Below, piece after piece: positions 12,709-63,195 of a stretch of 64,000 nucleotides of DNA. The notes under the pieces were generated by a model that worked only from the letters and a program-made list of their open reading frames with translations, was not told where the DNA came from and ran no database searches. The DNA comes from Alienimonas californiensis (GTDB lineage Bacteria > Planctomycetota > Planctomycetia > Planctomycetales > Planctomycetaceae). Numbering within the stretch: the first letter of the stretch is position 1; each line of letters starts with the position of its first letter. Both the position numbers and the translations under genes were made by a program. The stretch is from assembly GCF_007743815.1 (NCBI RefSeq), contig NZ_CP036265.1, positions 4,149,059 through 4,213,058 of the forward strand, read 5' to 3'.

Positions 12709-12811
12709 GGCGAGCGGGAGACGTCAGTCCCCTGAGCGAACGCCGCGTTCGTTTACGCTGTGGCTCAAAGCGAATCCGGGGCACTCAGGGGGCTGACGCC
12801 CCCCGCTCGCC
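12709..12811. repeat. Family-1 palindromic element, inverted pair (MITE-like): arm GGCGAGCGGGAGACGTCAGTCCCCTGAGCG, about 43-bp spacer, arm CACTCAGGGGGCTGACGCCCCCCGCTCGCC
   Basis: Lies in the intergenic region between the 11369..12700 ORF and tsaD. Same core as about 20 other copies in the window. Confidence 0.8.
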
Positions 12812-12819
12812 TTGGGCGT

Positions 12820-13905
12820 TCAGGCTCGCACCAGTCCCGGCGTCACGTCGCAGTCCAACGGGGCGAACTCGCCGCGTTCGAAGCTCTCCCACGCCAGGCC
12901 GGCCATGGCGGCGTTGTCGACGCACAGCTCCATCGGGGCGATGCACAGCCGCACGCCGCGGCGCTCGCACAGGTCCGTCAGGCCGACCCGCAGCGCCCGG
13001 TTGGCGGCCACGCCGCCGCCGACCAGCAGCGTCGGGCGACCGGTCTGCTTCAACGCGAGATCGCACTTGCCGACGAGCACGTCCACCGCCGCGGCCTGAA
13101 ACGACGCCGCCAGATCGGCGATCCGCCGTTCGCCCAGCGGCGGGGCGGGAACCTCCGGCGAGTTCGGATTGCCCAGCGCCGCGTACCGCACCGCCGTCTT
13201 CAACCCGCTGAAGCTGACGGCCAACTCCGGCCGGTTCATCATCGGCCGGGGCAGGGGGACGGCCGTCGGATCGCCGTGCTCCGCGGCCTGCTGCACGCTG
13301 GGGCCGCCGGGGTAAGGCAGGCCCAGCAGCCGGGCGACCTTGTCGAACGCCTCGCCGGCGGCGTCGTCGATCGTGCTGCCGATCAGCGTGGCGCGCACGG
13401 CGTCCGGGCAGTCGTACCAGTTCGTGTGTCCGCCGGAGACCACCAGCCCGCAGGCCGGAAAGGCCTCCTCCCCGTAGGCGATCCGGCAGGCGTAGAGGTG
13501 CGCCCGCAGGTGATCGACGGCGATCAGCGGGAGGTCCCAAACGGCCGCCAGCGTCTTCGCCGCGGTCACGCCGACCAGCAGCGAACCGACCAGCCCCGGA
13601 TGGGTGACGACCGCGATCGCGGACAGGTCCGTCGGCGTCACGTTTGCCTCGGCCAGAGCCTCGCGAATGACGGGCAGGATGCGTTCGACATGCGCCCGGG
13701 AAGCGATCTCCGGCACGACGCCGCCGAACCGCTCGTGCAGCGCCGCCTGCGAACTGACGACGCTACTGAGCACCGACCGATCCGCCGCGATCACCGCGGC
13801 GGCGGTCTCGTCGCAACTCGATTCGATCGCCAGCAGCGGGCCCGGCGAGCGGGGGGCGTCAGCCCCCGGAGCGTGGGGTTCTGCGTCGAGAGAACTCACG
13901 GGTTC
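12820..13905 (-). CDS. tsaD: tRNA N6-adenosine threonylcarbamoyltransferase TsaD (Kae1/YgjD family)
   Basis: [17 protein letters not shown]... HLYACRI..., GVAANRALR and [13 protein letters not shown] are hallmark TsaD motifs. The start is uncertain: the in-frame upstream stretch ...[15 protein letters not shown] is encoded by a family-1 repeat at 13845-13872. Confidence 0.85.
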
Positions 13906-15398
13906 GAAGACTCGTCTTCGTCTTCCGTGAGGACCTTCAGCGCCGCGGCGATGTGGGGGTCCTCCGTCGGCTCGTACTCCTCGTCCTGCTCCGGCGCCAC
14001 GGCGCCGGCGGGGCGGTCGCGGACGATGCGGTCGATGTTCAGGTTGCGCCGCTGCGGCAGGGTGAGGGGGATGCGGTAGCCCTCGTTCGGCGTGACGCCC
14101 CACTCGCCGTCCTCGTCCGACTGGCGGGCCGGGCGGTTGATCGGGCCGGGACGCTGAATGTTGGCCCCGCTCGGCCGCAGGTAGGCCGCGGTGGTGAGCT
14201 TCAACGCCGTGCGGCCGCCGCCGAGGTTGATGACCGTCTGCACGCTGCCCTTACCCCAGGTGCGTTCGCCGATCACCACCGCCCGGTTGGCGTCCTGCAA
14301 CGCGGCGGAGACGATTTCACTGGCGCTGGCGCTGAACCGATCGACCAGCACGGCGACCTTCAGCCCTTCCGCCGGGCCGCCCGGCAGGGCGTCGAACGAC
14401 TGCGACGCGACGTTGCGGCCGGCGGTGGAGACGATGCGGCCTTCCTTGAGGAACAGGTCCGCCACCGCGACCGCCTGATCGAGCAGCCCGCCCGGGTTAC
14501 CGCGAAGATCGAGGATCACGCCCTCCGCCCCGGCCTCCTTCAACTGGAGGAGGGCTTCGGTCAGTTCGCGGTCGGTGCCGGCGCCGAACCGGGTGACCCG
14601 CAGCAGGCCGATCTTCGGCTCGCCTTCCTCGCCCCCATCTGAGTTTTTGGAGGGCAGCAGGTAGTCCCAAGAGCCGTCGGCCCGGCGGGACTCGCCCAGC
14701 ACCGTCGGCACCCGCACGTCCGCCCGGACGACGGTGATCTCCAGCGGTTCCTCCTGCCCGGGCCGCATCAGGCCGAGTTTCACCGGCTCGCCCTCCGGCC
14801 CCTTGATGCGGGCGGTGACCGCGGAGGGGTCGAGACCGTCCACGCTTTCGCCGTCCACCTTCACGATCATGTCGCCGGCCCGCACGCCGGCCTCGGCGGC
14901 GGGGGTGCCGGGCAGCGGGGCGGTGATCGTGAGGCGGCCGGTCTCCGTGTCCGGCAGGATCTGCACGCCGATGCCGATGAACTGGCCCTCCACCTCCCGG
15001 GTGAACAGGCCGACCTCCTCGTCGTCCAGATAGGTGCTGTAGGGGTCGAGCTTGGCCACCATCCCGTCGATCGCCGCTTCGAGCAGCTCCTCGCGGCTGA
15101 CTTCGGAGACGTAGTTGCGTTCGATCTGTTCGAAGGAATCCGCGAACTCCCGCATCAGACGGAGCAGTTCCTCCCGATCCTCCCGCGGATCGACGGCCTT
15201 TTCGTCGGCGAGCGGCGGGGCGTCAGCCCCCCGTGCGGGTTCTTCCTGGACAGGCTCTTCCCGAGCGGGTTTCTCCTGAGCAGGTTCTTCCTGAGCCCAC
15301 GCCACGCCGACGCCCGGCAGGGCGTCGGACCCCGTGAAGGCCAGCGAACCGGCGAGCAGTCCCGCGGACAGAGACCGAAGGCGGCGGGAGCGGGGCAC
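13896..15398 (-). CDS. ctpA: C-terminal processing peptidase, S41 family (CtpA-like), with PDZ domain and signal peptide
   Basis: Signal peptide [19 protein letters not shown]...AWA-QEE. PDZ segment GIGVQI...[10 protein letters not shown]41 catalytic region [12 protein letters not shown]...[16 protein letters not shown]...[11 protein letters not shown] start mapped at about 15398. A family-1 repeat is in-frame inside the N-terminal linker (RGADAPPLA). Confidence 0.85.
15207..15235. repeat. Family-1 palindromic element (single arm) inserted in-frame within ctpA
   Basis: ggcgagcggcggggcgtcagccccccgtg; encodes ...[11 protein letters not shown]... on the minus strand between the signal peptide and the catalytic domain. 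Confidence 0.75.
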
Positions 15399-15540
15399 GG
15401 GGCGATTCTCCGGGCGGGCGGGGGGAACGCCGGACTGGACCGGCGCACGGAACGGACGGCAGTGTAGGCCGCCCGCCGCCGTGCCGTACACTGGCCGCGT
15501 GCACCTGCCGTTTCCCGATCTCGAACTGGCGCCTCCCCCG

Positions 15541-19047: not shown

Positions 19048-19060
19048 ATTGCTCGCACCC

Positions 19061-19089
19061 GCTCCGGGGGCTCACGCCCCCGGCTCGCC
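19061..19089. repeat. Family-1 palindromic element (gctccgggggctcacgcccccggctcgcc) between the AddB-like stop and the AddA-like start
   Basis: Lies in the 55-nt gap between the two genes; encodes PGAHAPGSP in the long track ORF upstream of the likely true start. Confidence 0.75.
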
Positions 19090-19102
19090 GGCCGCTCCGC
19101 GG

Positions 19103-22100: not shown

Positions 22101-22714
22101 CCGCCGTGCATGTCGCCGAACTGGCGGAGCGTCTGGCGAGCAATGAAGAGCGGGACGAACTCGCCCGGTTCCCCATCGCCGAGCCGGGGGCGTCTGTCCC
22201 CGGGGAGGCGAGCGACGACCCGGTCAACTCGGAGACCGTGAGCGATCCCCTCGCCGACGCCCGCGGTCGATTAGCGGACGCACTGCAACTATCGCGTCGC
22301 GTCGAACAGCGGCGGGGGCTCGACTATCACATTCCTCCGCTGGCCGACGTGCTGCCTGCAGTGACGGGACGAATCGAACGGTTGATCCTGCCGGCGGCGC
22401 CGAACGGGGGCCGAACAGGTCAAGGCGTCCAAGGCGTTCACCCCCCGGGGCCGGACGCCTTGAACGCCTTGGGCATGTCGGCGGGCGTGGCGGCGGCGAC
22501 GGCCGCGGAGGTGGCCGGGGTCGGGCTGCCGGATCGGCTCGTCCCGCGGTTATGGGCGGAGCGAACCGCGTTGGCGCCGCTGGGAGGAGGGGAGGCGGCC
22601 CTGCTGCTGGTCGCCGCGGACGGTGCGACCCGGCTCGTGCGCACGGAAGAACTGCCGGCGGGGGCCTGTTCCGACGACCGCGTCGCCGAGCTACTGCGGG
22701 GGGCCCTCCTGTGA
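19103..22714 (+). CDS. AddA-like ATP-dependent DNA helicase (UvrD/REP superfamily 1)
   Basis: Motif I GAGCGKTF, Ia AITFTEKATAEM, II LMVDEFQDTSPVQAEL, IV NFRSRPEIL, VI LMTVHGSKGLEFPVVV. Start ATG at 19103 downstream of a family-1 repeat. Contains two in-frame family-2 palindromic repeats. Confidence 0.85.
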   Translation: MHPQQEAAVFHSGSSVGLSAGAGCGKTFVLIERFLHELDPAREQDSPGPYGLPAVVAITFTEKATAEMVSRVRREVGRRLRDPARTEQRVWWRTIQRRLDTARISTIHGFCTALLKENAAAADLDPAFRTVEATEEADLRTDAVDAVLKTALARDPAKHDDPEALSPRDLVTRCGLTAVRGVLLNLLDTDRELLEKPWTTADLVAARAGAWARELIDPQFDALRDSADWAALRPVLQRNLTTTPAKAADRRTLLTELELLLTGPPPTPDRLRDRLADLRPLALTGKLGQSKKMWEGDDYGVIQAHLAPFRGAIDGLLKTLGDSPPDFAAALPTVRAYLPLAAAAAKRYERSKRDTARLDFGDQLRLAARLLRDDAVREKVARSIRLLMVDEFQDTSPVQAELVRQIAGLAAGEDAGKLFLVGDSKQSIYRFTGADPEVFGRMRGELAPAGRLPLTKNFRSRPEILRFVNALFDPVMPAYEPLESPPVEGGGVGDLESGGGPHVEFLLPTVPAGPDGKRATAAACREVEAKWVAARIRELLDGRPCVRVKGAADRPPKPGDVCLLFRTLGDVKLYEDALREVGVDAYVAGGKSFFAQQEVQDLVHLLLWLDDPDDTLSLAGVLRSPLCGLSDDTLFTLTDAEAVGERRSAQAVQAVHPPGAVILDALDASGESVSENHRGSVASVRQAPLAAAVLDDTPFSLLEDQAERLAHARVVLRDLLACRSRLGPGGLLERAVQAFGYDGSVMLEFLGERKLANLQKLLRMARNADAAPEGGLRGFAARLLESVKETLTEDEAATVTQDENVVTLMTVHGSKGLEFPVVVACDLDRKPPSVSVSGTFDPELGPIVPLSCQHGEDLIDHGAEIWKAREQVAEEAESVRVFYVAATRAADRLILSAARPLAKDEAPGGAADAPTGVPLKTLDAVFDLTTGKPREDRSAGDPLFFAPQVLVHHDKPAGTGKALPGPKRGTPPEKFADVLRSTEPCEPYDLRRPLPSPRPSAVHVAELAERLASNEERDELARFPIAEPGASVPGEASDDPVNSETVSDPLADARGRLADALQLSRRVEQRRGLDYHIPPLADVLPAVTGRIERLILPAAPNGGRTGQGVQGVHPPGPDALNALGMSAGVAAATAAEVAGVGLPDRLVPRLWAERTALAPLGGGEAALLLVAADGATRLVRTEELPAGACSDDRVAELLRGALL
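21036..21095. repeat. Family-2 palindromic element (CAAGCCGTTCAAGCCGTTCACCCCCCGGGGGCGGTCATCTTGGACGCCTTGGACGCCTCGG), in-frame within the AddA-like gene
   Basis: Inverted arms CAAGGCGTTCAAGGCG / CGCCTTGAACGCCTTG with slight degeneracy; encodes AQAVQAVHPPGAVILDALDASG. Confidence 0.7.
22418..22470. repeat. Family-2 palindromic element (CAAGGCGTCCAAGGCGTTCACCCCCCGGGGCCGGACGCCTTGAACGCCTTG), in-frame within the AddA-like gene
   Basis: Encodes GQGVQGVHPPGPDALNALG near the AddA C-terminus. Confidence 0.7.
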
Positions 22715-23988
22715 TGTCGCCCGATGCTCGTTCGACTCAGGGGGCTGACGCCCCCCGCTCGCCAGGGCCGCCGCTGTCCGACGTGCGGTGGTTGGAGTAC
22801 CTCCGCGAGCGCCCCGATCTCGTCGCGGCGGCCGCCGAGCGGGGGAACGCCCCGGCGGAGCAGGCTGCCTTGCGGAAGGAGCACCCCGCGGAGGCCGTCG
22901 CCGCGGCCCTCACGCTGGCCGAACTCCGAGGCCGGGCCGTCGAAAAGTTTCGCCTCGGCGACCGCATGTGGTTCGACCGGGTCCGGCTCGAACAGGCCAC
23001 CGGCGAAGCCGTCGCCCGGCACAAGGCCCGCCGGTTCGCCGCACGAATGAACGCAGGCGAGCCGGGGGCGTCAGCCCCCGGAGGGAACGGCTCGCCGGTG
23101 TTGGACCTCTGCGGCGGGCTGGGCGGGGACGCGATCGCTCTGGCGGAGTTCGTCCCCGTCCGCACCGTGGACCGCGACCCCGTCGCCGGCTGGATGGCGA
23201 CGCAGAACGCCGCCCTCCACGGCGTGTCCGACCGGGTGACGGCGGAAACGGCGTCCGCGGAGGAGGTGAACGTGTCCGGGGCGTTCGTGCACCTCGACCC
23301 GGACCGCCGCCCCGGCGGGGAACGTGGGGCCAAACGGCGGGAGAAGCGGCTCGAAGATTACGCCCCGGACCTGTCGTTCATGCGGTCCCTCGCCGCGTCG
23401 GCGGCCGGCGGGGCGATCAAGGTCAGCCCGGCCTCGAACTGGGGCGGCAAGTTCCCCGACTGCGAAATCGAGCTGATCTCCCACGGCGGCGAGTGCCGCG
23501 AGGCGACCGTCTGGTTCGGTTCCCTCGCCGACCCCGGCGTGCACCGGGCGACTGTGTTGCTGGACGACGACACGCACACCCTCGCCGCCGACCCGTTCGC
23601 CGCGATTCCGACCGTCGGGCCGATCGCGGACTACCTCTACGACCCCGACCCGTCGGTCGTGCGGGCCGGGCTGGTGGACGAGCTGTGCGAACGGACCGGC
23701 CTTCAACGGCTGGACGACGCGGAGGAGTACCTCACCGGACCGCGGGTCGAGACCCCGTTCGCCACCGCGTTTCGGGTGCTGGCGGTCTGCCCGAACAACG
23801 CCCGCCGCTACCGGGCCGCGATCGGCGAGACGGGGGCCGGCGACGTGGAGGTGAAATGTCGCCACCTGCCGACCGACGCCGCCGCCGTCCGCCGCAAACT
23901 GCCGCTCACGCCGGGCGGGCCGCGGCGGACGCTGATCTTCGCCAAGCTCGAAGGCAAAGCCGCCGCGGTGGTGTGCGAGCGGGCGTGA
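22714..23988 (+). CDS. Class I SAM-dependent methyltransferase (GxGxG fold; the C-terminal region may be THUMP-like)
   Basis: SAM-binding motif VLDLCGGLGGDAIALAE. ATG overlaps the AddA stop (TGATG). A family-1 repeat at 22737-22764 lies in-frame near the N-terminus ([12 protein letters not shown]); an alternative GTG start sits just downstream at about 22779. Confidence 0.6.
   Translation: MSPDARSTQGADAPRSPGPPLSDVRWLEYLRERPDLVAAAAERGNAPAEQAALRKEHPAEAVAAALTLAELRGRAVEKFRLGDRMWFDRVRLEQATGEAVARHKARRFAARMNAGEPGASAPGGNGSPVLDLCGGLGGDAIALAEFVPVRTVDRDPVAGWMATQNAALHGVSDRVTAETASAEEVNVSGAFVHLDPDRRPGGERGAKRREKRLEDYAPDLSFMRSLAASAAGGAIKVSPASNWGGKFPDCEIELISHGGECREATVWFGSLADPGVHRATVLLDDDTHTLAADPFAAIPTVGPIADYLYDPDPSVVRAGLVDELCERTGLQRLDDAEEYLTGPRVETPFATAFRVLAVCPNNARRYRAAIGETGAGDVEVKCRHLPTDAAAVRRKLPLTPGGPRRTLIFAKLEGKAAAVVCERA
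23056..23083. repeat. Family-1 palindromic element inside the methyltransferase gene (ggcgagccgggggcgtcagcccccggag), in-frame (GEPGASAPGG)
   Basis: Same core hairpin GGGGGC-GTCA-GCCCCC. Confidence 0.7.
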
Positions 23989-24066
23989 GGCGAGCGAGGG
24001 GCGTGAGCCCCCCGTGTTCTCGCACGCGTCCCGTCGCACGGCGGGCTGACGCCCCCTCGCTCGCCC
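23989..24066. repeat. Family-1 inverted pair (arms GGCGAGCGAGGGGCGTGAGCCCCCCGTG and GCGGGCTGACGCCCCCTCGCTCGCCC), intergenic
   Basis: Immediately follows the methyltransferase stop at 23988. Convergent gene ends are on either side. Confidence 0.75.
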
Positions 24067-24541: not shown

Positions 24542-24625
24542 GGGTTCGGCTTTCGGGAGACGGCCCGCGACCGCGGGCGACGGTGAGGGGAACGCCCGCA
24601 GTCTACCGACGCCCGACAGCCCGAG

Positions 24626-24707
24626 GCGAGCGGGGGCGTAAGCCCCCTGAGTTCTCCCAGCGGGGCCATCACGAATCGCACGGGGGGCTCACGCCCCCAC
24701 GCTCGCC
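24626..24707. repeat. Family-1 inverted pair (GGCGAGCGGGGGCGTAAGCCCCCTGAG ... CACGGGGGGCTCACGCCCCCACGCTCGCC), intergenic
   Basis: Lies between the minus-strand hypothetical gene and the plus-strand oxidoreductase gene. Confidence 0.75.
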
Positions 24708-24805
24708 TCAGCCCCCGGTCGCTTTGCACCGGCGCCCGCCTGCCGGCTAGCCTGCCCCCTGTCTCGACCGTCGTTCGCCCGTCTCCTCGTCTCCCCCCCG
24801 CCGCG

Positions 24806-26044: not shown

Positions 26045-26057
26045 TCGGGCGGGATCA

Positions 26058-26125: not shown

Positions 26126-26134
26126 TCCGGGCGG

Positions 26135-27983
26135 TTATTTCTCGTCCACTCGAATCACGCCGTCCCAGCCGGGGGGGGCGGTGCGGTGGCCTTCGGCGAG
26201 GCGGACCCGCAGGAAGTCCTGGGCGAGGTCGAAGGCGGGGTGGTCCTGCAGCACCTCGGCGGCCCGCGGCCAGTCGCCGGCGGTGAAGGCGGCGACGGCC
26301 TCGGCGTAGCGGGCGAGGTCCCGGTCGGTCAGCGGGGAGCCCTCCGGTGCCGGGCCGTGAGGCGGGAGCAGTTCGCTGACCCGCACCGCCCGCTGCATTT
26401 TCGCCGGCCGCACCGTCCCCAGCGGCCGCACCCGCAGCGGGACGTCGCCGGCGCTGGCCCCCTGTGCGGCGAGCACCGCGTCCGCCGTCGCCGCGTCGCA
26501 GACGACCGGCACCCGCAGCGGGCCGCACAGGCCTTCCAAACGGCTGGCGAGGTTCGCCGTCGGGCCGAACACGGTGATCTTCGCCTGGTCCTCCGTCCCG
26601 ATCCGCCCCGCGACCGCGGGACCCGTCGCGACCCCCACCCCCACCCGGAAGCCGGCCAGCGGATCGCCGGGGTCGCGGCGGGCGGCGAAATCCCCGGCGA
26701 TGCGAACCGCGGCGGTCGCGGCCTTGAGCGGGGCGGTCGGGTCCGTGGTCGGCCAGCCCCAGAAGGCGAGGGCGGCGTCGCCGAGGAAATCGCCCGTCAC
26801 CCCGCCGGCCTCGCGGATGCGGTGCGTCATCACGCTCAGCGCCGCCGACACCCGGGCCAGCAGCGCCGGTAGGTCGGCGGAGAGTTCTTCGCTGGTTCGG
26901 CTGAACCCTCGCAGGTCGCAGAACACCACGCTGGCGGTGCACTCCGCCGGGGCCAACGCCGCCGGGTCCGGGGACTCGCCCAGCGCCTCCAGCACGCGGG
27001 GGGGGAGGAAGGGCCGCAGCGTCGCCGCCTGCCGTTCGAGCCGACCGCTGCGATCGGCGGCGGAGACGATCTCCGCGACCAGCGAGACGAACCGCACATC
27101 GGCGGCCCGCTCCGCCGGCCCGGCGGCGTTGGACCCGAGCACCAACAGGCCGCGGTCGGCCGGGGCGGTGCCCGATCCTTCGGACTGGGCGTCGGCGATC
27201 GGCACCACAAACGCCCACCCGCCGACGGACGGGCTGAGGATCGCCTCGCCGGCGTTCAGGGAGGCCGTGATCAACTCCTGGGGGACCTGCGGCGGACCGT
27301 TCAACTCGTTGCGGCCGGACCAGCTTCGCAACTGCACCGCGTGCGCTCCGGGGACGGACGCCCCCGGCTCGCCCTGTTTGACGCGGGCGACGACGGCGAC
27401 GGCTTCGGCGTCCTGCACGCCGGCCAGCAGCAGGCCGCAGAGCGCGGGCAGGCGGCGGGCGTCGTCCGGCGTGCGGAGCACCTCCGGCAGGCGGGCGACG
27501 GCCTCGAAGCGGCGATCCGGCCGGGTGACGGCCACGCCGGCGAGGGTGCGGGCGTCGAAGGTGAGGGCGCCTTCCGACAGCGTGCCGACGGCACTGGAGC
27601 CGGGGGCGTCGTCGCCCGGGAAGCCGTCCTCCCCGGGGAAGACGGTCCCCTCGTCCTCCGCGGCGGCGGGCGGGCGGACCCGAAAACGGGTGCGGCCGGC
27701 GGCGAGCCGGGCGGCGTCCTGGAGATGGACCGTGCCGTGCACCCGCTCGCCGTTGCAAAACAGCGGGTTGCGGCCGTCGGTCCCGTCGCGGATCGTCAGC
27801 GTATCCGCGTCGCCGACGGAGACGCGAAAATGCACCCGCGAGAGCCGGGGATCGCTCGGCACCCGCAGATCGCAGAGGGCGGAGCGGCCGATCGAACGGG
27901 ATTCGCCCGGCCGCACGGTCAGCGAACGCCCGCCGTCGACGGCGATCGTCCAGCCGTCCGCTTCCCCGGGCTCCCCGCTCACG
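26135..27983 (-). CDS. FHA domain-containing adenylate/guanylate cyclase (class III nucleotidyl cyclase)
   Basis: FHA segment GRSALCDLRVPSDPRLSRVHFRV...LTIRDGTDGRNPLFCNGERV. Cyclase catalytic domain VVFCDLRGFSRTSEEL...GDFLGDAALAFWGWP...GVGVATGPAVAGRIG...FGPTANLASRLEGL. GTG start overlaps the kinase stop (GTGA) at 27979-27983. The N-terminal ~295 aa of track ORF 26135..28867 are Arg-rich and rejected. Confidence 0.8.
27336..27364. repeat. Family-1 palindromic element in-frame within the cyclase gene (gctccggggacggacgcccccggctcgcc)
   Basis: Encodes KQGEPGASVPGAH in the linker between the FHA and cyclase domains. Confidence 0.7.
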
Positions 27984-30195: not shown

Positions 30196-30469
30196 GGGGC
30201 TGGGATGGTACCCGGGCGGGCGTTCGGAGCGCAGACCACATTCTCGGCGGTCGCGGGGATCGACAATGCGTGCACAGATTGCAACGTCGCTCGTCAGGTC
30301 GGGGCGGAGCAGCCGGCATGCCGGAACGGTAGGGTGCGGCGTGGCGGCGCCCCCCGCTCGCCTCGGTCTCCGCTCAAGTTGTCGTGAACCGGCGGGCCGC
30401 GTTCGTCGTTCGCCTCCGGGAGCTGACGACCCCGGCTCGACATTCCCCCGCACCGGAGGAGCCTTCGCG

Positions 30470-37963: not shown

Positions 37964-38020
37964 GCCCCCGTAGCGAACGATGCCGGGGTGTCGCCCTCAG
38001 GGGATGACGCCGCCGTGCTC
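37951..38020. repeat. Family-1 degenerate inverted pair overlapping the gyrA stop (GCCGGGGGCGTGAGCCCCCGTAGCGAACG ... CCCTCAGGGGATGACGCCGCCGTGCTC)
   Basis: The gyrA C-terminal residues ...KPGA* are encoded by the left arm. Confidence 0.6.
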
Positions 38021-42233: not shown

Positions 42234-42249
42234 GCGGAGCGGGGAACGA

Positions 42250-42278
42250 GGCGAGCGGGGGTATCAGCCCCCTGAGCG
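42250..42278. repeat. Family-1 palindromic element (ggcgagcgggggtatcagccccctgagcg), intergenic
   Basis: Lies between divergent gene starts. Confidence 0.7.
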
Positions 42279-42377
42279 TTGCGAGGGGCCAACGCCCGTT
42301 CCACCACGGGGCGGCCCGCCGGTCAAGGCGGGATTCGGTCTGGCCGGGGAGACCCTTCGGGTGCGAAAACCCGGTTC

Positions 42378-43596: not shown

Positions 43597-44598
43597 GTGC
43601 CGGACGCCTCGCCCACCGCAGCCGCTCCGGGGGCTCACGCCCCCGGCTCGCCCCTCGCCCCCGGTTCGCTTGCACCGCATGCGGAGCCGTGGGACCGGCG
43701 GCACCTCGTGGGGCTGGCGGGGATGAGCGGGGCGGAGATCACCGAGTTGCTCGATCAGGCGGTGGAGTTCCGCCGGCTCAGCGAAGCCCGGGACCTGCCG
43801 GCGCCGCTGGCGGGGGCGACCGTTGGCAATCTGTTCTTCGAAAACTCCACCCGCACCCGCAACAGTTTTCGCCTCGCAGCAAAGCGGTTGGGGGCGGAGA
43901 CAGTCGAGTTCACCGAGGTCGGCTCCAGCGTCGCCAAGGGGGAAACCGTCGCGGACACCGTCCGTACGATCGAGGCGTTGGGCGTCGATCTGATGGTCAT
44001 CCGCCACGGTTCCCCCGGGGTGCCGCACCGGCTCCGGGAGTTCGTCACCTGCGGCCTGCTGAACGCCGGCGACGGCACTCACGAACACCCCACCCAGGCC
44101 CTGATCGACCTGCTGAGCCTGCGGGATGAGATGGGGGATCTGGCGGGCAAGACCGTCACGGTCGTCGGCGACATCCTGCACAGCCGGGTGGCCCGGTCGA
44201 ACATCCACGGCCTGCGGGCCCTGGGCGCCCGGGTACTCGTCTGCGGGCCGTCCACCCTGCTGCCCCGCCATCTGCCGGGGGCGGAGTTCTTCACCGACCT
44301 CGACGAGGCCCTCGCCCAGAGCGACGCGGTGAACCTACTGCGGGTGCAGTTCGAGCGGCAACGCGGCGCGTTCTTCCCCAGCCCGGCGGAGTACTACCGC
44401 CTGTTCGGCATGACCCAGACGCGGCTGGACCGCAGCGGCCGCGACCCGTGGGTGCTGGCCCCGGGGCCGATCAACCGCGGCATCGAACTGAGCAGCGAGG
44501 TGGCCGACGGCCCACGCTCGCTGATTCTGAAGCAGGTCGCCAACGGCGTGTTCATCCGCATGGCCTGCTTGGCGACGCTGATGGAGGCACGGCGATGA
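43597..44598 (+). CDS. pyrB: Aspartate carbamoyltransferase catalytic subunit
   Basis: STRTR (carbamoyl-phosphate binding) and HPTQ motifs; [14 protein letters not shown]...HSRV. Start uncertain: a family-1 repeat (43625-43653) lies in-frame at the N-terminus ([15 protein letters not shown]), and conserved PyrB sequence begins at [18 protein letters not shown]. Confidence 0.85.
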
Positions 44599-45896
44599 GT
44601 TCCTCCCCGGCGAGCGGGGGGCGTCAGCCCCCCGAGTCCCCCGTCCTCCTCATCCGCGGCGGCCGGGTCATCGATCCCGCGTCGGGAACGGACGAGGTCC
44701 GTGACCTGTGGATCCGAGACGGTCACCTTGTCGACCCGCCGGGCGGCACGGCGGACGACACATTGAATGCGGCGGGGCTCGTCGTCTGCCCCGGGTTCGT
44801 CGAACCGCACGCGATCGCTCCCACGGCGGGCGTCGATCTGCGATTCGCCCGGCAGGCGTTGGCGGGCGGGTACACGACCGTCGCCGCGTTCGGCACCGCC
44901 CGCCGGGCGCGGGATTTCGGCGGGGCCTGTCCGCGACTGCTGCGGATTGCTCCACTAACGGTATCGGGCACCCGACGGCTGGCGGAACTGGGCGACGCCG
45001 CGGAGGTCGGCGCCGTGGCGTTCGGCGACGGGCCGGAGCCGCACGGCGATGCGGAACTACTCCGTCGCGGCCTGCTGTACGCCGCGATGCTGGACCGGCC
45101 GGTGTTCGACCTGCCGCGGGACGCGGCGCTGAGCGAGGGCGGCGTCGCCGCGGCGGGACAGGTCGCGGCGGAGCAGGGGCTGTTCGGCGTACCCGCGGCG
45201 GCGGAGCGGATCGCGGTGCACCGCGGCATCGAGCTGGCCCGGGCGACCGGCGGCCGACTGCATTTCACGGCTCTCTCGGACGGCGGAGCCGCGATCACGG
45301 TCGAGGCGTTCCGCGAGGAATCGCTCCAGCAACCGCCGCAGGTCTCCGCCGCGATCGTCACGGCCCATCTGCTCTGCGACGAACGGTCGCTCCGCGGGTT
45401 CGATCCCGCCGGGCGTGTGGATCCCCCGTTCCGCAGCGACGCGGACCGGCAGGTTCTGGTCGAACTGGCCCTGAATCAGGGAGTCGAAGGGCCGACGATC
45501 ACCGCCCTGACGGCCGGGCACCGGCCCGACCCGGGGCTGCTGGATCCGGTGGATCTGTTGGTCGCCCCGCCGGGGTTCGAAGCGTTCGAGACCGCCTTCG
45601 CCGCCGCGCTGACGGCGCTGGGCGTCGGCAGCCTGTCGGCACTGATCGAGCGGTTCACCACGGGGCCCGCGGCGATCCTGGGGCAGCCGGAGCCGGCGCT
45701 CGCCGTCGGGGCACCCGCCGATCTGGCGCTGTTCGATCCCGACGTGGAGGGCGTCTGCGATCCGGCGACGCTCGCCGTGCCGGTGGCCCGGACGCCGCTG
45801 GCCGGCCGCACGCTGCGGGGGCGGGTGACGCACACGATTCTGGGCGGCCGCGTGGTCTTCGAACGCGGCGGCTTTCCTGCCCCGCCGACTCGTTGA
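44595..45896 (+). CDS. Dihydroorotase-like amidohydrolase (PyrC'-type partner of PyrB)
   Basis: [15 protein letters not shown]...[16 protein letters not shown] pattern of the dihydroorotase/amidohydrolase N-terminus. ATG overlaps the pyrB stop (ATGA). A family-1 repeat is in-frame at residues about 5-14 ([10 protein letters not shown]). Confidence 0.7.
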
Positions 45897-46782: not shown

Positions 46783-46795
46783 GGACGCTCGAGCG

Positions 46796-46889
46796 GCGAG
46801 CCGGGGGCGTCAGCCCCCGGAGCGAACGGGCGTTTGACCTCGGAGCGAAACAGGGCGCGACCTCGGGGGGCTGACGCCCCCCGCTCGCC
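46796..46889. repeat. Family-1 inverted pair (GGCGAGCCGGGGGCGTCAGCCCCCGGAGCG ... CCTCGGGGGGCTGACGCCCCCCGCTCGCC), intergenic
   Basis: Between convergent gene ends (46782 and 46911). Confidence 0.8.
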
Positions 46890-46910
46890 TTAGCTTCGCT
46901 CGCCGTGGCC

Positions 46911-50777: not shown

Positions 50778-53225
50778 TCAGACCAACCCCCGCTTTTTGC
50801 GGAGGTACCACTCCGTGCCCATCAGGCCGACGAAGAGCAGCGGGACCCACCACTGGTCGTACAGCGGGGTGCGGGCGACGACGGTGCTCTCGGCGGCGGC
50901 GGGCGGTTCCTCGGCCCAGCGGGCGAGGAAGGCGGGCAGTTCCTCCGGCGGCACGACGCTGCCGCCGGTCATTCGGGCCAGATCCGCCAGCAGGGCCGGG
51001 TCGGCGGCGGGGTTGTCCAGTTCCAAGTCCCGCGGATCGACGATGAACCGAGTCACGGCGTCCGGCCCCAGCAGCGCGCCCGCTCCGTCGCCGGAGGCGG
51101 CGGTCGCCCGCACCCGCACCCAGTAGTCGCCGGGGACGTCGGTGTCGGCGGCGTCGGCCCGGAACTGCCCCGGGGAGGCCGGACCGGCGGCGCGGGGGGA
51201 GAGCATGGAGACCTCGCCGTCCGGGGCGGTCACCTCGACGGTGAACTGGGCGTCCTCCACCGGGTTCCCCTCCGCGTCGCGGGCGCCGAACCGCAACCGG
51301 GCCGGGCGGCCGGGCACGACGTTCCGGGGTTCGGCGACGACGAAGACCGGGCCGTCGGTGTCCTGTTCCTTCCGCGTCAGCCAGAGCACGACCTGCCGCC
51401 AGAACCGGGCGTGCTCCGCCTCGAAGCCGGAGAGCGGCCACAGCCAGGTGGTGTCCCCCGCGAAGGCCAGCACGCGACTGCGGCCGTACTCGGAGGCGAT
51501 CAGCAGCGGCACGTCGTCCGGCCCGACGGCCAGCACGTCCGCGGGCACGTTTCGCTTCAGTTCCAGCCGGTTCGCCCCCTCGAGCGGCGGCAGGTTCCGC
51601 CAGACGTCGGCGTTCGCTTGGGGGTCGGCGAGCAGCATGACGTAACTCTGGGCGCCCTGCCGGGTGGGGGTCATCGGGACTTCGCCGGCGATCTGGGTGC
51701 GGGGGTCGAAGTCGTCGACGGCCCCGCCGCGGGGCAGCTCGACCGGCAACACGTTCCGCAGCGCCGTACGGTCCCAGCCGCCGGGGCCGAAGCTGTTCAG
51801 GCCGCCAGTCATCATGAGACCGGCGCCGTCCTCCACCCGGGCGGCGAGGTTGTCGAGGAAGTCGACGTTCCCCTCCTGAAAGGCCTCCGCCGCCACGTCG
51901 CCGATGATGAAGGCGTCGTACCGGCCGGGCTCGAACAGGGCCGCTTCCAACCGCAGGCCCGGCGAGAGGGCGTTCGGGTTCGCCGGCAGTTCGACGTAGT
52001 CGAGCTGAATCTTGTTGGACAGGTTCACCCGCCGCAGGGCGTTCACCTCCGGCCGCAGGCGGTCGAAGTACAGCACGCGGATGCCGCCCTTGCGGACGCT
52101 GAGCACGGTGGCCCGCTGGTTGTTCGTCTGCTTGAGTTCGCCCTCGACCGGCTCGATCTGCAGGGCGAGCTTCATCTCCCCAGCGATCTGCGGGACGAAG
52201 GTGAGTTCGATCGGGATCTCCTCGCTGCCGGTCGTGGGGCGGACGACGACCACGGGGCGGGCGTCGGCGGCGGGTTCGACCGGAGCCAGTTGCGTCTCGT
52301 CGCCGGGGCCGCGGGCGGGGGGGGATTCAGTCAGCAGACGAACGGTGAACTCGCGGCCGGCGCCGCCGACGATCCGCACCACGCCGGAGACCGGCACGAG
52401 TTTCTTCTCGAAGACGACGGGATCGACCCGCAGGTCCTCCACGGAGAGGTCCAGCCCCGCGGTGGGCGCCCCGTCGCTGCCGAACGGCACCCCGAAGATC
52501 CGCACGCCGGACTCCGCCAGCAGGGCGCCGGCGGCCCGGGGGTCGGCGTCGTCCGGCGGCAGGGCCCGCTGGGCGCCGTCGGTCAGCAGCACCACGCTGC
52601 TGAGGTCCACGCCGGTCCGCACCAGTTCCCCCAGCACCACCCCCAACGCCGTGCGGTCGCCGGTCGGTTCCTCCGGCAGCGCGGCCAGCGGGTCCGGCGA
52701 TTCGCCCTCGGCCGCGGCGTTCTCGGGCTCCGGCGGCGGGTTGCGGGCGGCGTCGAAGGTGGCGACGAGCACCTCCAGATCCTCGCCCAGCTCCGCCAGC
52801 GCCGGGGCGGAGGCCGCCAGCACGGAGCGCATCGATTCGAACCGCGTCGCCCCGCCGGGTTCGTCAGCGATGGTCATGCTGCGCGAGACGTCCGCCAGCA
52901 CCAGGATCGCGGGGCGTTCCGTTTCGGTCTCCTCCCGCCGCAGTTCCGGGCGGAGCAGGGCGAGCGTGAGCAGCGCCGCCCCCGCCAGTCGCAGGCCCAG
53001 CAGCGTCCGCCGCACGCCCGGCGAGAGGTGCCGCACCCGCGGCGGGTAGGTCCACAACACCAGCCCGACCAGCGCCGCCCCGCAGAGCAGCGTCAGCGTG
53101 AGGGACCAGGCGGGGTTGAGGGCCAGGGACAGCGGAGCGTGGCTCGAAAAGATTGAGGCGAGCGTGGGGGCGTCAGCCCCCCGTGGACGCGACCGCGGGA
53201 GCGGGCGCGGGGGCGGATTGTTCAC
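50778..53225 (-). CDS. von Willebrand factor A domain membrane protein (BatA/BatB-like) with C-terminal class-I glutamine-amidotransferase-like region
   Basis: N-terminal TMs; vWA MIDAS motif ILVLADVSRSM. Start uncertain: the track start at 53225 overlaps the upstream gene by 53 nt and runs through a family-1 repeat (RGADAPTLAS). Confidence 0.65.
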   Translation of the reverse strand: MNNPPPRPLPRSRPRGADAPTLASIFSSHAPLSLALNPAWSLTLTLLCGAALVGLVLWTYPPRVRHLSPGVRRTLLGLRLAGAALLTLALLRPELRREETETERPAILVLADVSRSMTIADEPGGATRFESMRSVLAASAPALAELGEDLEVLVATFDAARNPPPEPENAAAEGESPDPLAALPEEPTGDRTALGVVLGELVRTGVDLSSVVLLTDGAQRALPPDDADPRAAGALLAESGVRIFGVPFGSDGAPTAGLDLSVEDLRVDPVVFEKKLVPVSGVVRIVGGAGREFTVRLLTESPPARGPGDETQLAPVEPAADARPVVVVRPTTGSEEIPIELTFVPQIAGEMKLALQIEPVEGELKQTNNQRATVLSVRKGGIRVLYFDRLRPEVNALRRVNLSNKIQLDYVELPANPNALSPGLRLEAALFEPGRYDAFIIGDVAAEAFQEGNVDFLDNLAARVEDGAGLMMTGGLNSFGPGGWDRTALRNVLPVELPRGGAVDDFDPRTQIAGEVPMTPTRQGAQSYVMLLADPQANADVWRNLPPLEGANRLELKRNVPADVLAVGPDDVPLLIASEYGRSRVLAFAGDTTWLWPLSGFEAEHARFWRQVVLWLTRKEQDTDGPVFVVAEPRNVVPGRPARLRFGARDAEGNPVEDAQFTVEVTAPDGEVSMLSPRAAGPASPGQFRADAADTDVPGDYWVRVRATAASGDGAGALLGPDAVTRFIVDPRDLELDNPAADPALLADLARMTGGSVVPPEELPAFLARWAEEPPAAAESTVVARTPLYDQWWVPLLFVGLMGTEWYLRKKRGLV
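53157..53185. repeat. Family-1 palindromic element (ggcgagcgtgggggcgtcagccccccgtg); its loop TGA is the stop codon of the upstream BatA-like gene
   Basis: Minus strand reads ...GTC GCG TCC ACG GGG GGC TGA = ...VASTGG*. Confidence 0.75.
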
Positions 53226-59392: not shown

Positions 59393-59397
59393 CGCCG

Positions 59398-59532
59398 GCG
59401 AGCGAGGGGGCGTTCGCCCCCCGTGCCGTCGTCGATCGGAACCGCAGCGTCCCGGACCTTGGGAGGGTCCGGGACGCTGTTTTGGTGTCGTGGCGTCGTG
59501 AGAACACGGGGGGCGAACGCCCCCCGCTCGCC
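59398..59532. repeat. Family-1 inverted pair (GGCGAGCGAGGGGGCGTTCGCCCCCCGTG ... CACGGGGGGCGAACGCCCCCCGCTCGCC) enclosing a terminator hairpin
   Basis: Between convergent gene ends (59392 and 59535). Confidence 0.8.
59444..59484 (+). terminator. Intrinsic terminator (stem CAGCGTCCCGGACC / GGTCCGGGACGCTG, then UUUUGG) for the plus-strand oxidoreductase gene; the same hairpin could also pause minus-strand transcripts
   Basis: Direct reading of cagcgtcccggaccttgggagggtccgggacgctgttttgg. Confidence 0.65.
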
Positions 59533-59534
59533 TG

Positions 59535-60446
59535 TCAGGCGCTTTCCAGGCCGAGGACGGCGTTCATGCGGTTCGCCACGTCGGTGAGGCGGTCGAGATC
59601 GCCGCCGCGGACCTCCGCGGTCGCCCAGCCGCGATAGCCGATCGTCTCCAGCGCCGCCCGCACGGCGTCCCAGTCGACGCTGCCCTCGCCCAGTTCCACG
59701 CCGAAACCTTTGTAGAGGCCGTCGCTCTGCTGGAGCTTGCGGCTGTATTCCTTCACGTCCAGCTTGCGGATGCGGTCGCCCAACACGGCGATCCACTGTT
59801 CCGGCCAGCCGATGCGGACCACGTTGCCGACGTCGAAATACGCGCCGACGGCCGGGGAGTCGAAGCCGTCGATGAACCGGGCGAACTCCAACGGGCTGAG
59901 CAGGAAGTTGTTCCAGACGTTCTCGAACAGCACGTCGACGCCGGTCTCCTCCGCCACGGGCAGGGCTTTGGCGATCTCCAGTTCGGCGCGGGCGTAGGCG
60001 TCGGCGTAGCCGGTGTCCTCGTCGACCACACCGGGGATCACCAGCACCGAGGAGCCGCCGAGTTGTTCGCAGTCTCGCAACGCCTGCTGGAGCCCGGCGA
60101 CGGCCCGGGCCCGCACGGCGGCGTCCGCCGCGGAGAAGCGATCCTTCCAACTGTCGCCGTACACCACGCCGTGGATCGGCAACCCGACGGCGTCACGGGC
60201 GGCCAGCAACGCCGACACGTCGCGGGCGGAGCTGTCGATCTCGATTCCCGCGAACCCGGCCGCCTTGGCGATCGCGAACTTCTCCTCCAGCGAGCCTTCG
60301 CCGCTGATCATGGACAGCTTCACCGCCTTGCGGTAGCGGGCGGCGTCCTCCGGGAACTCGGTGACGGCGGCGGGCGGGGCGGCCCGCAGCGTTGAGGCGG
60401 CGGCGAGGGCGGCGGCGGAGCCGGCCAGAAAAGTGCGACGCTGCAT
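59535..60446 (-). CDS. Sugar phosphate isomerase/epimerase (xylose-isomerase-like TIM barrel) with Tat signal peptide
   Basis: Tat motif MQRRTFLAGSAAALAAAS. Segments GFAGIEI, VLFENVWNNFL and AYFDVGN are typical of the AP-endonuclease 2/xylose isomerase-like fold. Confidence 0.8.
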   Translation of the reverse strand: MQRRTFLAGSAAALAAASTLRAAPPAAVTEFPEDAARYRKAVKLSMISGEGSLEEKFAIAKAAGFAGIEIDSSARDVSALLAARDAVGLPIHGVVYGDSWKDRFSAADAAVRARAVAGLQQALRDCEQLGGSSVLVIPGVVDEDTGYADAYARAELEIAKALPVAEETGVDVLFENVWNNFLLSPLEFARFIDGFDSPAVGAYFDVGNVVRIGWPEQWIAVLGDRIRKLDVKEYSRKLQQSDGLYKGFGVELGEGSVDWDAVRAALETIGYRGWATAEVRGGDLDRLTDVANRMNAVLGLESA

Positions 60447-61588: not shown

Positions 61589-62209
61589 GTGAAGATCACC
61601 GACGTCCGCGTGAAACTCGCCCCCGGCGCCGACGCCGCCGGCGGGGAGGCCGGTCGACTGCTCGCCTTCTGCTCGATCACCCTCGACGGGTGCTTCGTGG
61701 TGCGGGACCTGAAGCTGATCCGCGGGGAGCAGGGGGCGTTCGTCGCCATGCCCAGCCGCAAGATCACCGCCCGCTGCGAGGCCTGCGGCGGGAAGAACCC
61801 GTTGCGGGCGAACTATTGCGGGGACTGCGGAGCGGCACGCAACGACGCCGAGGAGGCCGCCGCCGCGGACGCCCGGCCGAAGCTGTACGCGGACATCGCT
61901 CACCCCATCAACGCGGCCTGCCGGTCGGAGTTGGAGACCTGCGTCGTCGCCGCCTGGGAGCGGGAGCGGGTGCTGGCGACCTCGCCGGACTACGTCTGCC
62001 GGTACGACGAGTGCGACATCGGCGAATCGTTCCCCCCGCACACGCTGAGCCGAGCCGAATCAGTGCCGCGGTCGCTGCCGAACGTGCCGGGCGTCACCCG
62101 CCGGATCGACGACGCCGCGATCGGCCGGACGGGCCGGCCGCCGGTTCGCAGTCCGCTGCGGGCGGCCCGGCGGAACGAGCCGGCGGGAGCCTTCGGCGAC
62201 GGGCTGTGA
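61589..62209 (+). CDS. spoVG: SpoVG family protein with an unusual about 100-aa C-terminal extension carrying a CxxC...CxxC zinc-ribbon-like motif
   Basis: N-terminal VKITDVRVKL...LLAFCSITLDGCFVVRDLKLIRGEQGAFVAMPSRK matches SpoVG closely. Extension CEACGGKNPLRANYCGDCG. GTG start at 61589. The overlapping Arg-rich track ORF 61564..62265 is rejected. Confidence 0.75.
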   Translation: MKITDVRVKLAPGADAAGGEAGRLLAFCSITLDGCFVVRDLKLIRGEQGAFVAMPSRKITARCEACGGKNPLRANYCGDCGAARNDAEEAAAADARPKLYADIAHPINAACRSELETCVVAAWERERVLATSPDYVCRYDECDIGESFPPHTLSRAESVPRSLPNVPGVTRRIDDAAIGRTGRPPVRSPLRAARRNEPAGAFGDGL

Positions 62210-62311
62210 GGATTCGACTGGCGGAAGCGGTTCGACCGGCGGGGACGGTTCTGCGCGGCCGATAAGTACGGAGACGCCGCCCCTTCCCCGAATCGCTGGA
62301 GTCCGCCGCCC

Positions 62312-63124
62312 GTGGGCATGTTCCGCGAACACGTCGCCGTCAGCGGGACCTGCGGCGCCGCACTGGCCGCGGGGATGTGGGTCGCCACCCCCATTGACGG
62401 GGTGCAGGCCGGCGTGGCCTTCACCCTGGTCGGCGTCGGCGGGGCGCTGCCGGACCTCGACAGCGACCGCGGCCGGCCGATTCAGGAACTCACGGCGCTG
62501 CTGGGCGCCGCGGTGCCCTTCGTGCTCGTCCGGCGGTTCGCGGAGGTCGCCCGCAGCTTCGACGCGATCGTCGGGCTGGGCATCCTCACCTACCTCCTCG
62601 TGCGGTACGGCGGCGGCTGGCTGCTGCGCAAGACCACGGTGCACCGGGGGATGTTTCACAGCCTGCCGGCGATGATGATCAGCGGGCTGCTGACCTATCT
62701 GGCCTACAAGAGCCCCGAGCCGGGCATCCGTCTGCTGATGGCGACCGCCGTCATGACCGGATTCGCCTCCCACCTGATGCTGGACGAATGGTGCAGCGTC
62801 GACTGGCGCGGCCTGCGGCCGCGGCTCAAAAAGTCGGCCGGCACGGCGATCAAATGGGCCGGCGATTACCCGTCCGCCACGGTCGCCTGCTACTCGCTGC
62901 TGGGCGTCTGCCTGTACGCCACGGCGATCGACAGCGATCTGATTGAGGTGAACCGCGTCGGCGTGCCGCAACGGGTGGCGGACCTGCCCCGCGAGGCCGG
63001 ACCTTGGATGGCCGTCTCCCCGGAGACCGGGGAGCGGGTCATGGTTGAGGGCCAAGCCAACCGCGAATTTGGCGACGACCCCGTACGCACGGTGGAGCGC
63101 AGCGGGGCGATCGTCGTGCGGTAG
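62312..63124 (+). CDS. Membrane-bound metal-dependent hydrolase (DUF457/YdjM-like)
   Basis: Multiple TM segments with conserved LPDLD and HRG..HS motifs. Confidence 0.65.
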   Translation: MGMFREHVAVSGTCGAALAAGMWVATPIDGVQAGVAFTLVGVGGALPDLDSDRGRPIQELTALLGAAVPFVLVRRFAEVARSFDAIVGLGILTYLLVRYGGGWLLRKTTVHRGMFHSLPAMMISGLLTYLAYKSPEPGIRLLMATAVMTGFASHLMLDEWCSVDWRGLRPRLKKSAGTAIKWAGDYPSATVACYSLLGVCLYATAIDSDLIEVNRVGVPQRVADLPREAGPWMAVSPETGERVMVEGQANREFGDDPVRTVERSGAIVVR

Positions 63125-63195
63125 CCGAGCGGGGGGCGTCTGTCCCCTGAGCGAATCCGTGTACGCCCTCAGGGGGCTGACGCCCCCCGCTCGCC
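63125..63195. repeat. Family-1 inverted pair (GCCGAGCGGGGGGCGTCTGTCCCCTGAGCG ... CCCTCAGGGGGCTGACGCCCCCCGCTCGCC), intergenic
   Basis: Between convergent gene ends (63124 and 63215). Confidence 0.8.

Follow-up and report, generated by a model that had tools for sequence, protein, structure and literature searches.

The palindromic repeats described here have close counterparts in known systems. The repetitive extragenic palindromic (REP) elements of Escherichia, Pseudomonas, and Stenotrophomonas share with them a short hairpin whose 5' foot is unpaired, an occurrence as singlets and inverted doublets (like REPINs and bacterial interspersed mosaic elements), an enrichment between convergent and co-directional genes, and the pairing with a single-copy Y1 gene, the REP-associated tyrosine transposase (RAYT), flanked by REPs of its own. 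REPs are occasionally found inside genes and can donate stop codons to their neighbors (Di Nocera 2013, PMC3733652). Among the HUH-Y1 proteins, Quentin, Siguier, Chandler, and Fichant (2018, PMC6006769) distinguished a small class 3, mainly from Planctomycetes, with atypical hairpins on the gene flanks that have a CnGA foot and can reach a high copy number; Table S1 of that paper lists the class 3 hairpins of P. limnophilus (CACGAGCCGGAAGCGTGAGCGACGGGT, ADG69454.1), Legionella (CCGAGCCGCGACCGTAAGGGAGCGGA), and Solibacter (CAGAGCCGCGACCGTCAGGGAGCGATCG). We analyzed a dispersed hairpin repeat in a 64,000-nucleotide stretch of the planctomycete Alienimonas californiensis (NZ_CP036265.1, positions 4,149,059 to 4,213,058; the window), which an initial annotation had likened to REPs, to Rickettsia palindromic elements (RPEs), and to miniature inverted-repeat transposable elements (MITEs). 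We consider it likely, with a probability of roughly 80%, that these repeats are REP-type hairpins of a REPtron system with an HUH-Y1 (IS200-like) partner.

The core of the repeat, GGGGGCNNNNGCCCCC (GGGGGC-N4-GCCCCC), was present 17 times in the window, against 0.16 times expected from dinucleotide-preserving shuffles of the same DNA; none of 100 shuffles reached 17 cores, and the maximum in any of them was at most 2. The over-representation claimed initially was thereby confirmed. An nhmmer profile made from the oriented core copies and run over the whole window recognized 27 solid units at 20 sites, all within 12,709-63,196, and no unit in positions 1-12,700, while an independent repeat finder returned the same family. 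The earlier figure of about 20 copies is too low for the units. Six sites are inverted pairs with the feet pointing outward, and one consists of two tandem units. At gathering thresholds, no Rfam family covered the repeats, the sole match in the window being the tmRNA (transfer-messenger RNA) gene.

The unit, GGCGAGC[G/C]-GGGGGC-GT[C/G]A-GCCCCC-[G/C/T]GAG, is asymmetric. Its 8-bp G+C stem (C[G/C]GGGGGC / GCCCCC[C/T/G]G) is capped by a GTSA loop, preceded on the 5' side by an unpaired foot, GGCGAG, and followed by a short tail; the other side of the hairpin carries no such foot. The symmetric unit of the initial annotation, with GCGAGCG before and CGCTCGC after the hairpin, had to be given up: this 30-mer had no match in the window, even with up to 3 mismatches allowed, and a symmetric appearance is confined to the inverted pairs with their two facing units. 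Folding of the unit gave a perfect 8-bp stem with a free 6-nt foot, the top strand being more stable than its complement. Across 214 copies, foot, stem, and loop (GTCA, GTGA, GTAA, or GTTA, i.e., of the GNNA type) were nearly invariant, and the 3' tail varied by lineage (TGAT, TGTT, CGGT, CGAG, TGAA, GGAG). Positions -2/+17 were C-G in 197 of the 214, and positions -1/+16 covaried (G-T, 131; G-C, 49; C-G, 18). Because G-T is so frequent here, the foot-first strand folds better than the complementary one, which fits recognition of one strand.

Aligned without gaps, the P. limnophilus hairpin was identical to the unit at 19-20 of 27 positions, and the foot, the start of the stem, and the loop set were alike: the unit has GCGAG followed by CCGGGGGC and a GT[C/G/A/T]A loop, and P. 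limnophilus has ACGAG followed by CCGGAAGC and a GTGA loop. Shared with class 3 are thus an x-n-G-A-G foot abutting a stem that starts with CCG, and loops of GTCA, GTGA, GTAA, or GTTA. The likeness extends to a Y1 partner of about 180-210 amino acids with the motifs HVH, W[T/S], and Y...Q, to several hairpins flanking its gene, to a high copy number, and to planctomycete hosts. The two differ in that the window stem is a perfect 8-bp G/C helix, whereas the published stems carry an internal GA/AG bulge, and in that the first base of the foot is G here and C there. A bulged hairpin found next to a Y1 gene in another genome, AGGCGAGCCGGGAGCGTGAGCGACCGG (locus L264), is intermediate between the unit and the P. 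limnophilus form. The density seen here (27 units in 51 kb), the coding share, and the spread among planctomycetes are absent from the published description of class 3, with which the proteins were compared by motifs. In the plasmid collection, the Legionella class 3 hairpins were dispersed, with no Y1 gene nearby.

Pfam scans revealed no transposase in the window, and the candidate partner was spotted in the synteny table of a sister species, Alienimonas sp. DA493, as an additional open reading frame (ORF) flanked by inverted units. This ORF of 209 amino acids (13102-13731 of DA493 locus L121) lies between the GFO and FHA-cyclase genes and is extra relative to the window. It carries the motifs LHVH, WWT, and YVRDQ, matches Pfam Y1_Tnp at 23.6 bits (cutoff, 23), and has weak NCBIfam matches to IS200 transposase and to RAYT (22.5 bits versus a cutoff of 80 for the latter). 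The flanking units stand in inverted orientation at 13025 (+) and 13714 (-), and the 3' one supplies the stop codon of the ORF. A homology search with the DA493 protein yielded 63 relatives, many of them annotated by JGI (the Joint Genome Institute) as "REP element-mobilizing transposase RayT." Each cluster of homologues comprised few sequences and contigs, and one match only among the 63 came from A. californiensis itself, a "transposase [Alienimonas californiensis]" of 199 amino acids encoded outside the window (P0250; Y1_Tnp, 26.2 bits), in which H106, H108, WW, and Y165...Q169 are intact. All 13 aligned members of the family matched Y1_Tnp; His106, His108, Trp143/144, and Gln169 were invariant, and Tyr165 was nearly so, giving the family motifs xHVH, WW[T/S], and YVRxQ. 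A search of PDB with the single DA493 sequence returned noise only; the profile of 13 homologues matched solved structures of IS200/IS605 TnpA (2F4F, 2EC2, 2XM3). The Y1 transposase that the initial annotation had suggested looking for was found as a hairpin-flanked gene in relatives and as a homologue in the source genome.

The hairpin-flanked arrangement recurred at other loci. In an Alienimonas-like metagenome-assembled genome (MAG; L262), the Y1 gene directly follows the GFO gene, at the same locus as in DA493, and its flanking hairpins were recognized by the profile. At L263, three units, likewise recognized by the profile, lie on each side of the Y1 gene, some of them inside its 3' end; the encoded protein, P0277, ends in peptides derived from its own hairpins (3531-3613), the repeats having spread into the end of the transposase gene itself. 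The bulged variant at L264 flanks its Y1 gene with weak profile matches (E values of 0.002-0.009). At L261, which was negative with the profile, reading of the upstream sequence by eye showed foot, loop, and tail kept and a compensated stem (GCCCGC/GCGGGC). A regular-expression search for HUH-Y1 ORFs at 120 genome, 120 metagenome, and 13 viral loci gave no match, but the expression also misses the DA493 gene with its LHVH. The family shares with IS200/IS605 elements the transposase fold and family (Pfam Y1_Tnp) and, presumably, hairpin DNA substrates. It differs from them in the single A. californiensis homologue among the 63, in the large number of hairpins dispersed away from the gene, and in that no large ORF such as tnpB directly adjoined the Y1 gene in the contexts read.

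We then compared the window with DA493, using two loci of one contig (L121 and L122) that are syntenic with 12.8-32.9 kb and 35-46.9 kb of the window and 83-92% identical to it in nucleotide sequence. Ten sites filled in the window turned out to be empty in DA493: 13843, 15207, one of 15538/15565, 22733, 23055, 24624/24673, 27340, 37945, 43621, and 44608. Inside genes the gaps in DA493 were clean, of 36 nt (22733), 30 nt (23055), 42 nt (43621), and 36 nt (44608), i.e., multiples of three. Six sites were common to both species (12779, 19057, 22180, 30412, 42249, and 46795), some of them decayed in one species, and two copies were specific to DA493. In an alignment of 15 orthologues of the methyltransferase, the N-terminal and internal insertions were present in A. 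californiensis only, and two other relatives had an independent GEPGA(L/S)...PGG insertion at a third site. Likewise, an alignment of 16 orthologues showed the N-terminal tail of PyrB, MP[D/E]..., to be conserved, and 14 extra amino acids were found in A. californiensis only. Because of these filled and empty sites and the absence of the insertions from outgroup orthologues, the units are recently mobile and the in-frame segments, judged from these alignments, are lineage-specific insertions, as the initial annotation had supposed, and not ancestral sequence, which would have refuted it.

The six inverted pairs, whose coordinates had been given correctly (nhmmer and folding), have near-identical arms with GGCGAGC ends outward and a total length of 72-138 nt, and they fold as long hairpins of -55 to -115 kcal/mol. 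Arms of this kind could be taken for the 28-nt terminal inverted repeats of MITEs moved by a DDE transposase, the single units being deletion remnants. We regard this as very improbable. No direct target duplications surround any of the six pairs, and the spacers between their arms vary in length (about 6-70 nt) and show no sequence relationship to one another. The clean single insertions of 30-42 nt have no partner, other genomes contain in-frame tandem arrays with periods of 33 and 45 nt, no transposase is encoded in the window, and the gene that adjoins hairpins in relatives codes for a Y1 HUH rather than a DDE enzyme. Of the original description as a REP-, RPE-, or MITE-like dispersed element, the REP-like character with both in-frame and intergenic copies is supported, and the MITE part is not.

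The Pfam scans agreed with the gene calls for tsaD, ctpA, the addB-like and addA-like genes, the THUMP-like methyltransferase, the GFO/IDH oxidoreductase, and the FHA-cyclase, and also confirmed a Ser/Thr kinase, gyrA, UDP-glucose dehydrogenase, pyrB, the pyrC'-like amidohydrolase, BatA, and a GATase1-like gene. The methyltransferase and PyrB of the window are 100% identical to proteins of A. californiensis (Planctomycetaceae). With these calls, about 10 of the 27 units are wholly coding, the unit at the end of gyrA additionally overlaps a stop codon, and more than half are non-coding. Start-codon analysis bore out the in-frame copies reported in ctpA, the pyrC'-like gene, the FHA-cyclase linker, and the methyltransferase. 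As for the N-terminal copies, those of tsaD, pyrB, and addA do lie within the first 5-20 codons; the tandem copies at 15538/15565, assigned to addB, are probably upstream of its true start, GTG 15607 (VRLLCGTPRGGKTG), and hence non-coding. The claim that a copy supplies the TGA stop of BatA at 53173 also held, the codon (53173-53175) being the reverse complement of the GTCA loop, and a second gene, gyrA, takes its stop from a loop read forward as GTGA.

A unit with a GTCA loop leaves five of its six reading frames open, all of them encoding peptides rich in Gly, Ala, Pro, and Ser, and both strands of the same repeat DNA are indeed used, in five frames altogether, for peptides that have no relation to one another (e.g., GLTPPAR). 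Given the position of these peptides at termini and in linkers and their high content of G, A, P, and S, one could think of selection at the protein level for flexible linkers (PGADAPxSP and the like) or of a by-product of the 71% G+C content (67-76% along the window). This explanation has almost no probability left. Protein-level selection and a composition artefact are refuted by the shuffles together with the use of several frames with unrelated peptides; in addition, most units do not code for protein, and genomes with only 55-60% G+C contain the motif as well. In-frame insertion into functional genes, with peptides at tolerated sites, is shared with RPEs. Those elements are about 100-150 bp long and restricted to Rickettsia, and we know of no partner enzyme for them; here the units measure 30-42 nt, the hosts are planctomycetes, and there is a Y1 partner gene.

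Outside the window, the exact 24-mer GGCGAGCSGGGGGCGTSAGCCCCC was found in at least 120 stretches from at least 61 assemblies of a one-genome-per-species collection, at 55-76% G+C. The labels of these assemblies, among the matches listed and with MAG taxonomy as deposited, were Gemmataceae, Fimbriiglobus, Zavarzinella, Planctomycetaceae, Pirellulaceae/Pirellulales, and Isosphaeraceae. The only non-planctomycete label among the matches listed was Alcaligenaceae (CAZVZK010000018.1, a 101-kb contig of 69% G+C with one Alienimonas-type unit), where the contig may have been mis-binned or may match by chance. The Alienimonas-type variant was abundant in the metagenome collection; the unit was not found in 7.3 Gb of plasmids, which gave no planctomycete match. 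About one-third of the copies in other genomes lay at least 30 codons inside ORFs resembling coding sequences, with either orientation and each of the five open frames represented, a rough estimate obtained with a crude ORF and G+C-by-codon-position filter. The motif was also carried by 13 stretches of viral contigs. Two Mu-like phage contigs had 8-9 units in 12-13 kb, some of them inside a terminase ORF. Among the Mu-like contigs, L255 encodes MuA/MuB-like proteins and a terminase, and IMGVR_UViG_3300004623_000022 (L260) encodes a head protease and major and minor head proteins; IMGVR_UViG_3300026516_000172 (L249) is listed with these two. Mu-like phages might carry the units from one lineage to another.

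As noted initially, the pairs sit mostly between convergent genes (five of six), and five of the eight convergent junctions in the window carry one, with another palindrome at a sixth. Together with the identical 24-mer in at least 61 planctomycete assemblies (57-75% G+C for these), the GNNA loops, and the covarying stem with G-T pairs favoring one strand, this could point to a host signal (for example, a two-way terminator, an RNA-stability hairpin, or a binding site for a host protein) maintained by selection and spread by recombination, the Y1 gene being incidental or domesticated for its upkeep. We hold such an origin to be unlikely, since the units may point either with or against transcription and are read in five frames where they code, and since at least 10 sites differ between the sister species, so that most copies are dispensable. 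Furthermore, no T-run follows the hairpins, as an intrinsic terminator would require (the tails are GGAGCG, TGAG, or CGAG), units are also present in Mu-like phage genomes, and termination 5-20 codons after the start of essential genes such as tsaD and pyrB would be harmful. The pairs may nevertheless have acquired a secondary host role.

The mechanism that we propose for the preferred reading, REP-type hairpins with a Y1 partner, is modeled on those of IS200/IS605 TnpA and of TnpA-REP from E. coli. The hairpins would be non-autonomous, unable to move alone, and would be mobilized by the Y1 protein. This enzyme would recognize a single strand, exposed as single-stranded DNA, by its folded hairpin and foot and would cut and rejoin it next to the foot. 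Such a reaction could spread single units of 30-42 nt, tandems, and inverted doublets, all without target duplications. Insertions with a length of 3n would be tolerated in linkers and within the opening 5-20 codons of genes in tightly packed operons, because five frames are open, the peptides are flexible and made of G, A, P, and S, and the landing places are tails and linkers. In the closed frames, the TGA of the loop becomes the stop codon of the gene. Doublets may persist at convergent gene ends, either because they are harmless there or because, as their position suggests, they act as two-way terminators or RNA stabilizers.

Several observations weigh against this reading. At the locus that carries the Y1 gene in DA493 and L262, the window (26045-26134) has no Y1 gene and only an unrelated palindrome. 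P0250 is 58% identical to the DA493 Y1 protein, compared to 85-94% for housekeeping proteins; this divergence and its different position suggest a relocation or replacement of the Y1 gene. The Y1 genes seen with flanking hairpins are those of relatives. The assignment of the partner, a protein of about 200 amino acids, to the kind called class 3 TnpA-Y1 is based on motifs and hairpin similarity, and to our knowledge there is no biochemical evidence for any class 3 Y1 protein. Unlike canonical REPs, the unit has no GT[AG]G foot, nor a CGTC tag, and its positions -9 and -10 are not conserved; the Y1 protein, too, falls below the NCBIfam cutoff for RAYTs, as given above. The alignments with DA493 showed no consistent target-site duplication or insertion target motif. 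About 40% of the units touch coding sequence, a fraction far larger than in REP/RAYT systems and unusually high for elements called extragenic. Finally, an identical 24-mer shared by dozens of species in several orders is unlike the usual REP/RAYT pairs, which co-evolve and are inherited vertically.

A more far-reaching possibility is that the class 3 Y1/hairpin system is ancient in the sampled planctomycetes, its 24-nt hairpin being kept nearly invariant in Gemmataceae, Planctomycetaceae, Pirellulaceae/Pirellulales, and Isosphaeraceae by host use, and that frame tolerance keeps adding short flexible peptides to essential proteins. Possible uses are a two-way terminator at convergent ends or an operon-junction hairpin tying downstream translation to upstream, and the Mu-like phages with their many copies could transfer the system between lineages. 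We put this forward tentatively, as a rather doubtful extension of the proposed REP-type system.

REP elements, Y1 partners, in-gene copies, donated stops, and a class 3 hairpin in one planctomycete are already known. Literature searches with the core sequence and for reports of planctomycete REPs or MITEs found no description of this family and no mention of how widely it ranges among planctomycetes, how dense it is here, that it was recently active in Alienimonas, or that Mu-like phages carry it. The family ties an abundant, recently active hairpin repeat of planctomycetes to the little-studied class 3 HUH-Y1 proteins, with a defined candidate substrate and with filled and empty sites in sister species. 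That tsaD, pyrB, gyrA, addA, and an RNA methyltransferase tolerate insertions of 10-14 amino acids a few codons downstream of the start or in linkers bears on protein evolution. In practical terms, the repeats affect the annotation of start codons and will affect the assembly and binning of planctomycete MAGs.

The individual sites of the window are as follows, with the sites empty in DA493 being those named above. The first pair, 12709..12812 (12709-12742, +; 12779-12812, -; -71 kcal/mol), separates the convergent genes 11369-12700 (+) and tsaD (12820-13899, -), and its right arm is also present in DA493 (L121 1-25). Within tsaD, whose start, GTG 13899, overlaps the ctpA stop, the unit 13843..13873 (+) occupies codons 9-19 in frame, and TsaD has 359 amino acids in the window versus 348 in DA493. 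In ctpA, 15207..15237 (+) lies in frame in an E/P-rich linker after the signal peptide. The tandem units, 15538-15564 and 15565-15593 (both -), stand between the divergent ctpA and addB; DA493 has one degenerate unit there, and the window is longer by 30 nt. At the addB/addA junction, 19057..19090 (-) would be in frame in codons 6-17 of addA if this gene starts at ATG 19040, which overlaps the end of addB; the orthologous DA493 copy is degenerate. A degenerate unit inside addA, 22180..22202 (+), is in frame (AEPGASVPG, around residue 1052) and better preserved in DA493. The methyltransferase, with a start (ATG 22714) that overlaps the addA stop and is the same in RefSeq, contains two in-frame units: 22733..22764 (-) in codons 7-17, absent in 14 of 14 orthologues aligned, and 23055..23089 (+) just before the S-adenosylmethionine-binding motif (AGEPGASAPGGNG), absent in all orthologues. 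Next to it, the pair 23988..24065 (arms at 23988 and 24035) abuts the stop of the methyltransferase gene, which is convergent with 24077-24541 (-); DA493 has a different palindrome here. The pair 24624..24708 (arms at 24624 and 24673) is located between the divergent 24077-24541 (-) and GFO/IDH oxidoreductase gene (24806-26044, +). The inter-domain linker of the FHA-cyclase holds 27340..27373 (-) in frame (GEPGASVPGAHA), and a degenerate unit upstream of the Ser/Thr kinase gene, 30412..30439 (-), is common to DA493 (L121 18016-18040).

At the 3' end of gyrA, the unit 37945..37980 (+) makes the gene end in GGT AAG CCG GGG GCG TGA (37946-37963), the stop at 37961-37963 coming from its GTGA loop; GyrA of DA493 has a different C-terminal tail. 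Between the divergent 41526-42233 (-) and 42279-43574 (+) lies 42249..42279 (+), common to DA493 (L122 8656-8679). The pyrB unit, 43621..43652 (-), is in frame in codons 9-19, and the resulting 14-amino-acid insertion is absent in 15 orthologues. It continues in a foot-side extension of about 22 nt (43653-43674, TGCAAGCGAACCGGGGGCGAG) that is shared with unit 24673 (24709-24730, TGCAAAGCGACCGGGGGCTGA) and is possibly a longer subfamily or a partial second unit. Because the repeat lies in the N-terminal tail, annotations of the PyrB start (43597-44598) disagree, giving 333 or 291 amino acids, and the conserved MP[D/E] start of relatives favors the long form. In the pyrC'-like amidohydrolase, 44608..44639 (+) is in frame in codons 5-15; the ATG start of the gene, which overlaps the stop of pyrB, is conserved. 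The pair 46795..46890 (arms at 46795 and 46857) lies between the convergent 45949-46782 (+) and 46911-50681 (-), and its left arm is partly present in DA493. The unit at the BatA/GATase1-like junction, 53156..53190 (+), is in addition in frame in codons 12-24 of the GATase1-like gene (start, GTG 53225). The last two pairs are 59396..59533 (arms at 59396 and 59500; -115 kcal/mol), between the convergent 57887-59392 (+) and 59535-60446 (-), and 63124..63196 (arms at 63126 and 63163), between the convergent 62312-63124 (+) and 63215-63997 (-).

Other palindromes were noted along the way. A second, unrelated family of about 70 nt (CAAGGCGTTCAAGGCGTTCACCCCCCGGGG...GACGCCTTGAACGCCTTG) occurs at 21041-21113, 22412-22484, and 26053-26125; two of these copies are in frame in addA (e.g., GQGVQGVHPPGPDALNALG), and one fills the convergent gap between the GFO and FHA-cyclase genes, the Y1 site of relatives. 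DA493 has a further 54-nt in-frame copy of this family in addA, beside the shared unit (L121 ~9290-9345). A third palindrome (CAGCGTCCCGGACCTTGGGAGGGTCCGGGACGCTG) is nested at 59444-59480 in the spacer of the 59396-59533 doublet, and in DA493 a relative of it (L121 ~11060-11100) takes the place of the doublet that follows the methyltransferase gene.

Among the remaining features of the window, the tmRNA gene is full length (5605-5965, -; RF00023, 150 bits). The release factor 2 gene (39563-40676, +) has an apparent classic +1 frameshift site, CTC TTT GAC (CTTTGAC), at 39629-39635; its long ORF starts only at 39678, and the DA493 annotation gives a product of 370 amino acids. The ORF 46911-50681 (-), of 1,256 amino acids and with no Pfam match, contains long in-frame tandem repeats at 47352-47669 and 48731-48995, with periods of 18 and 15 nt, and the AT skew of this tandem-repeat region is strong, ranging from -0.24 to -0.42.

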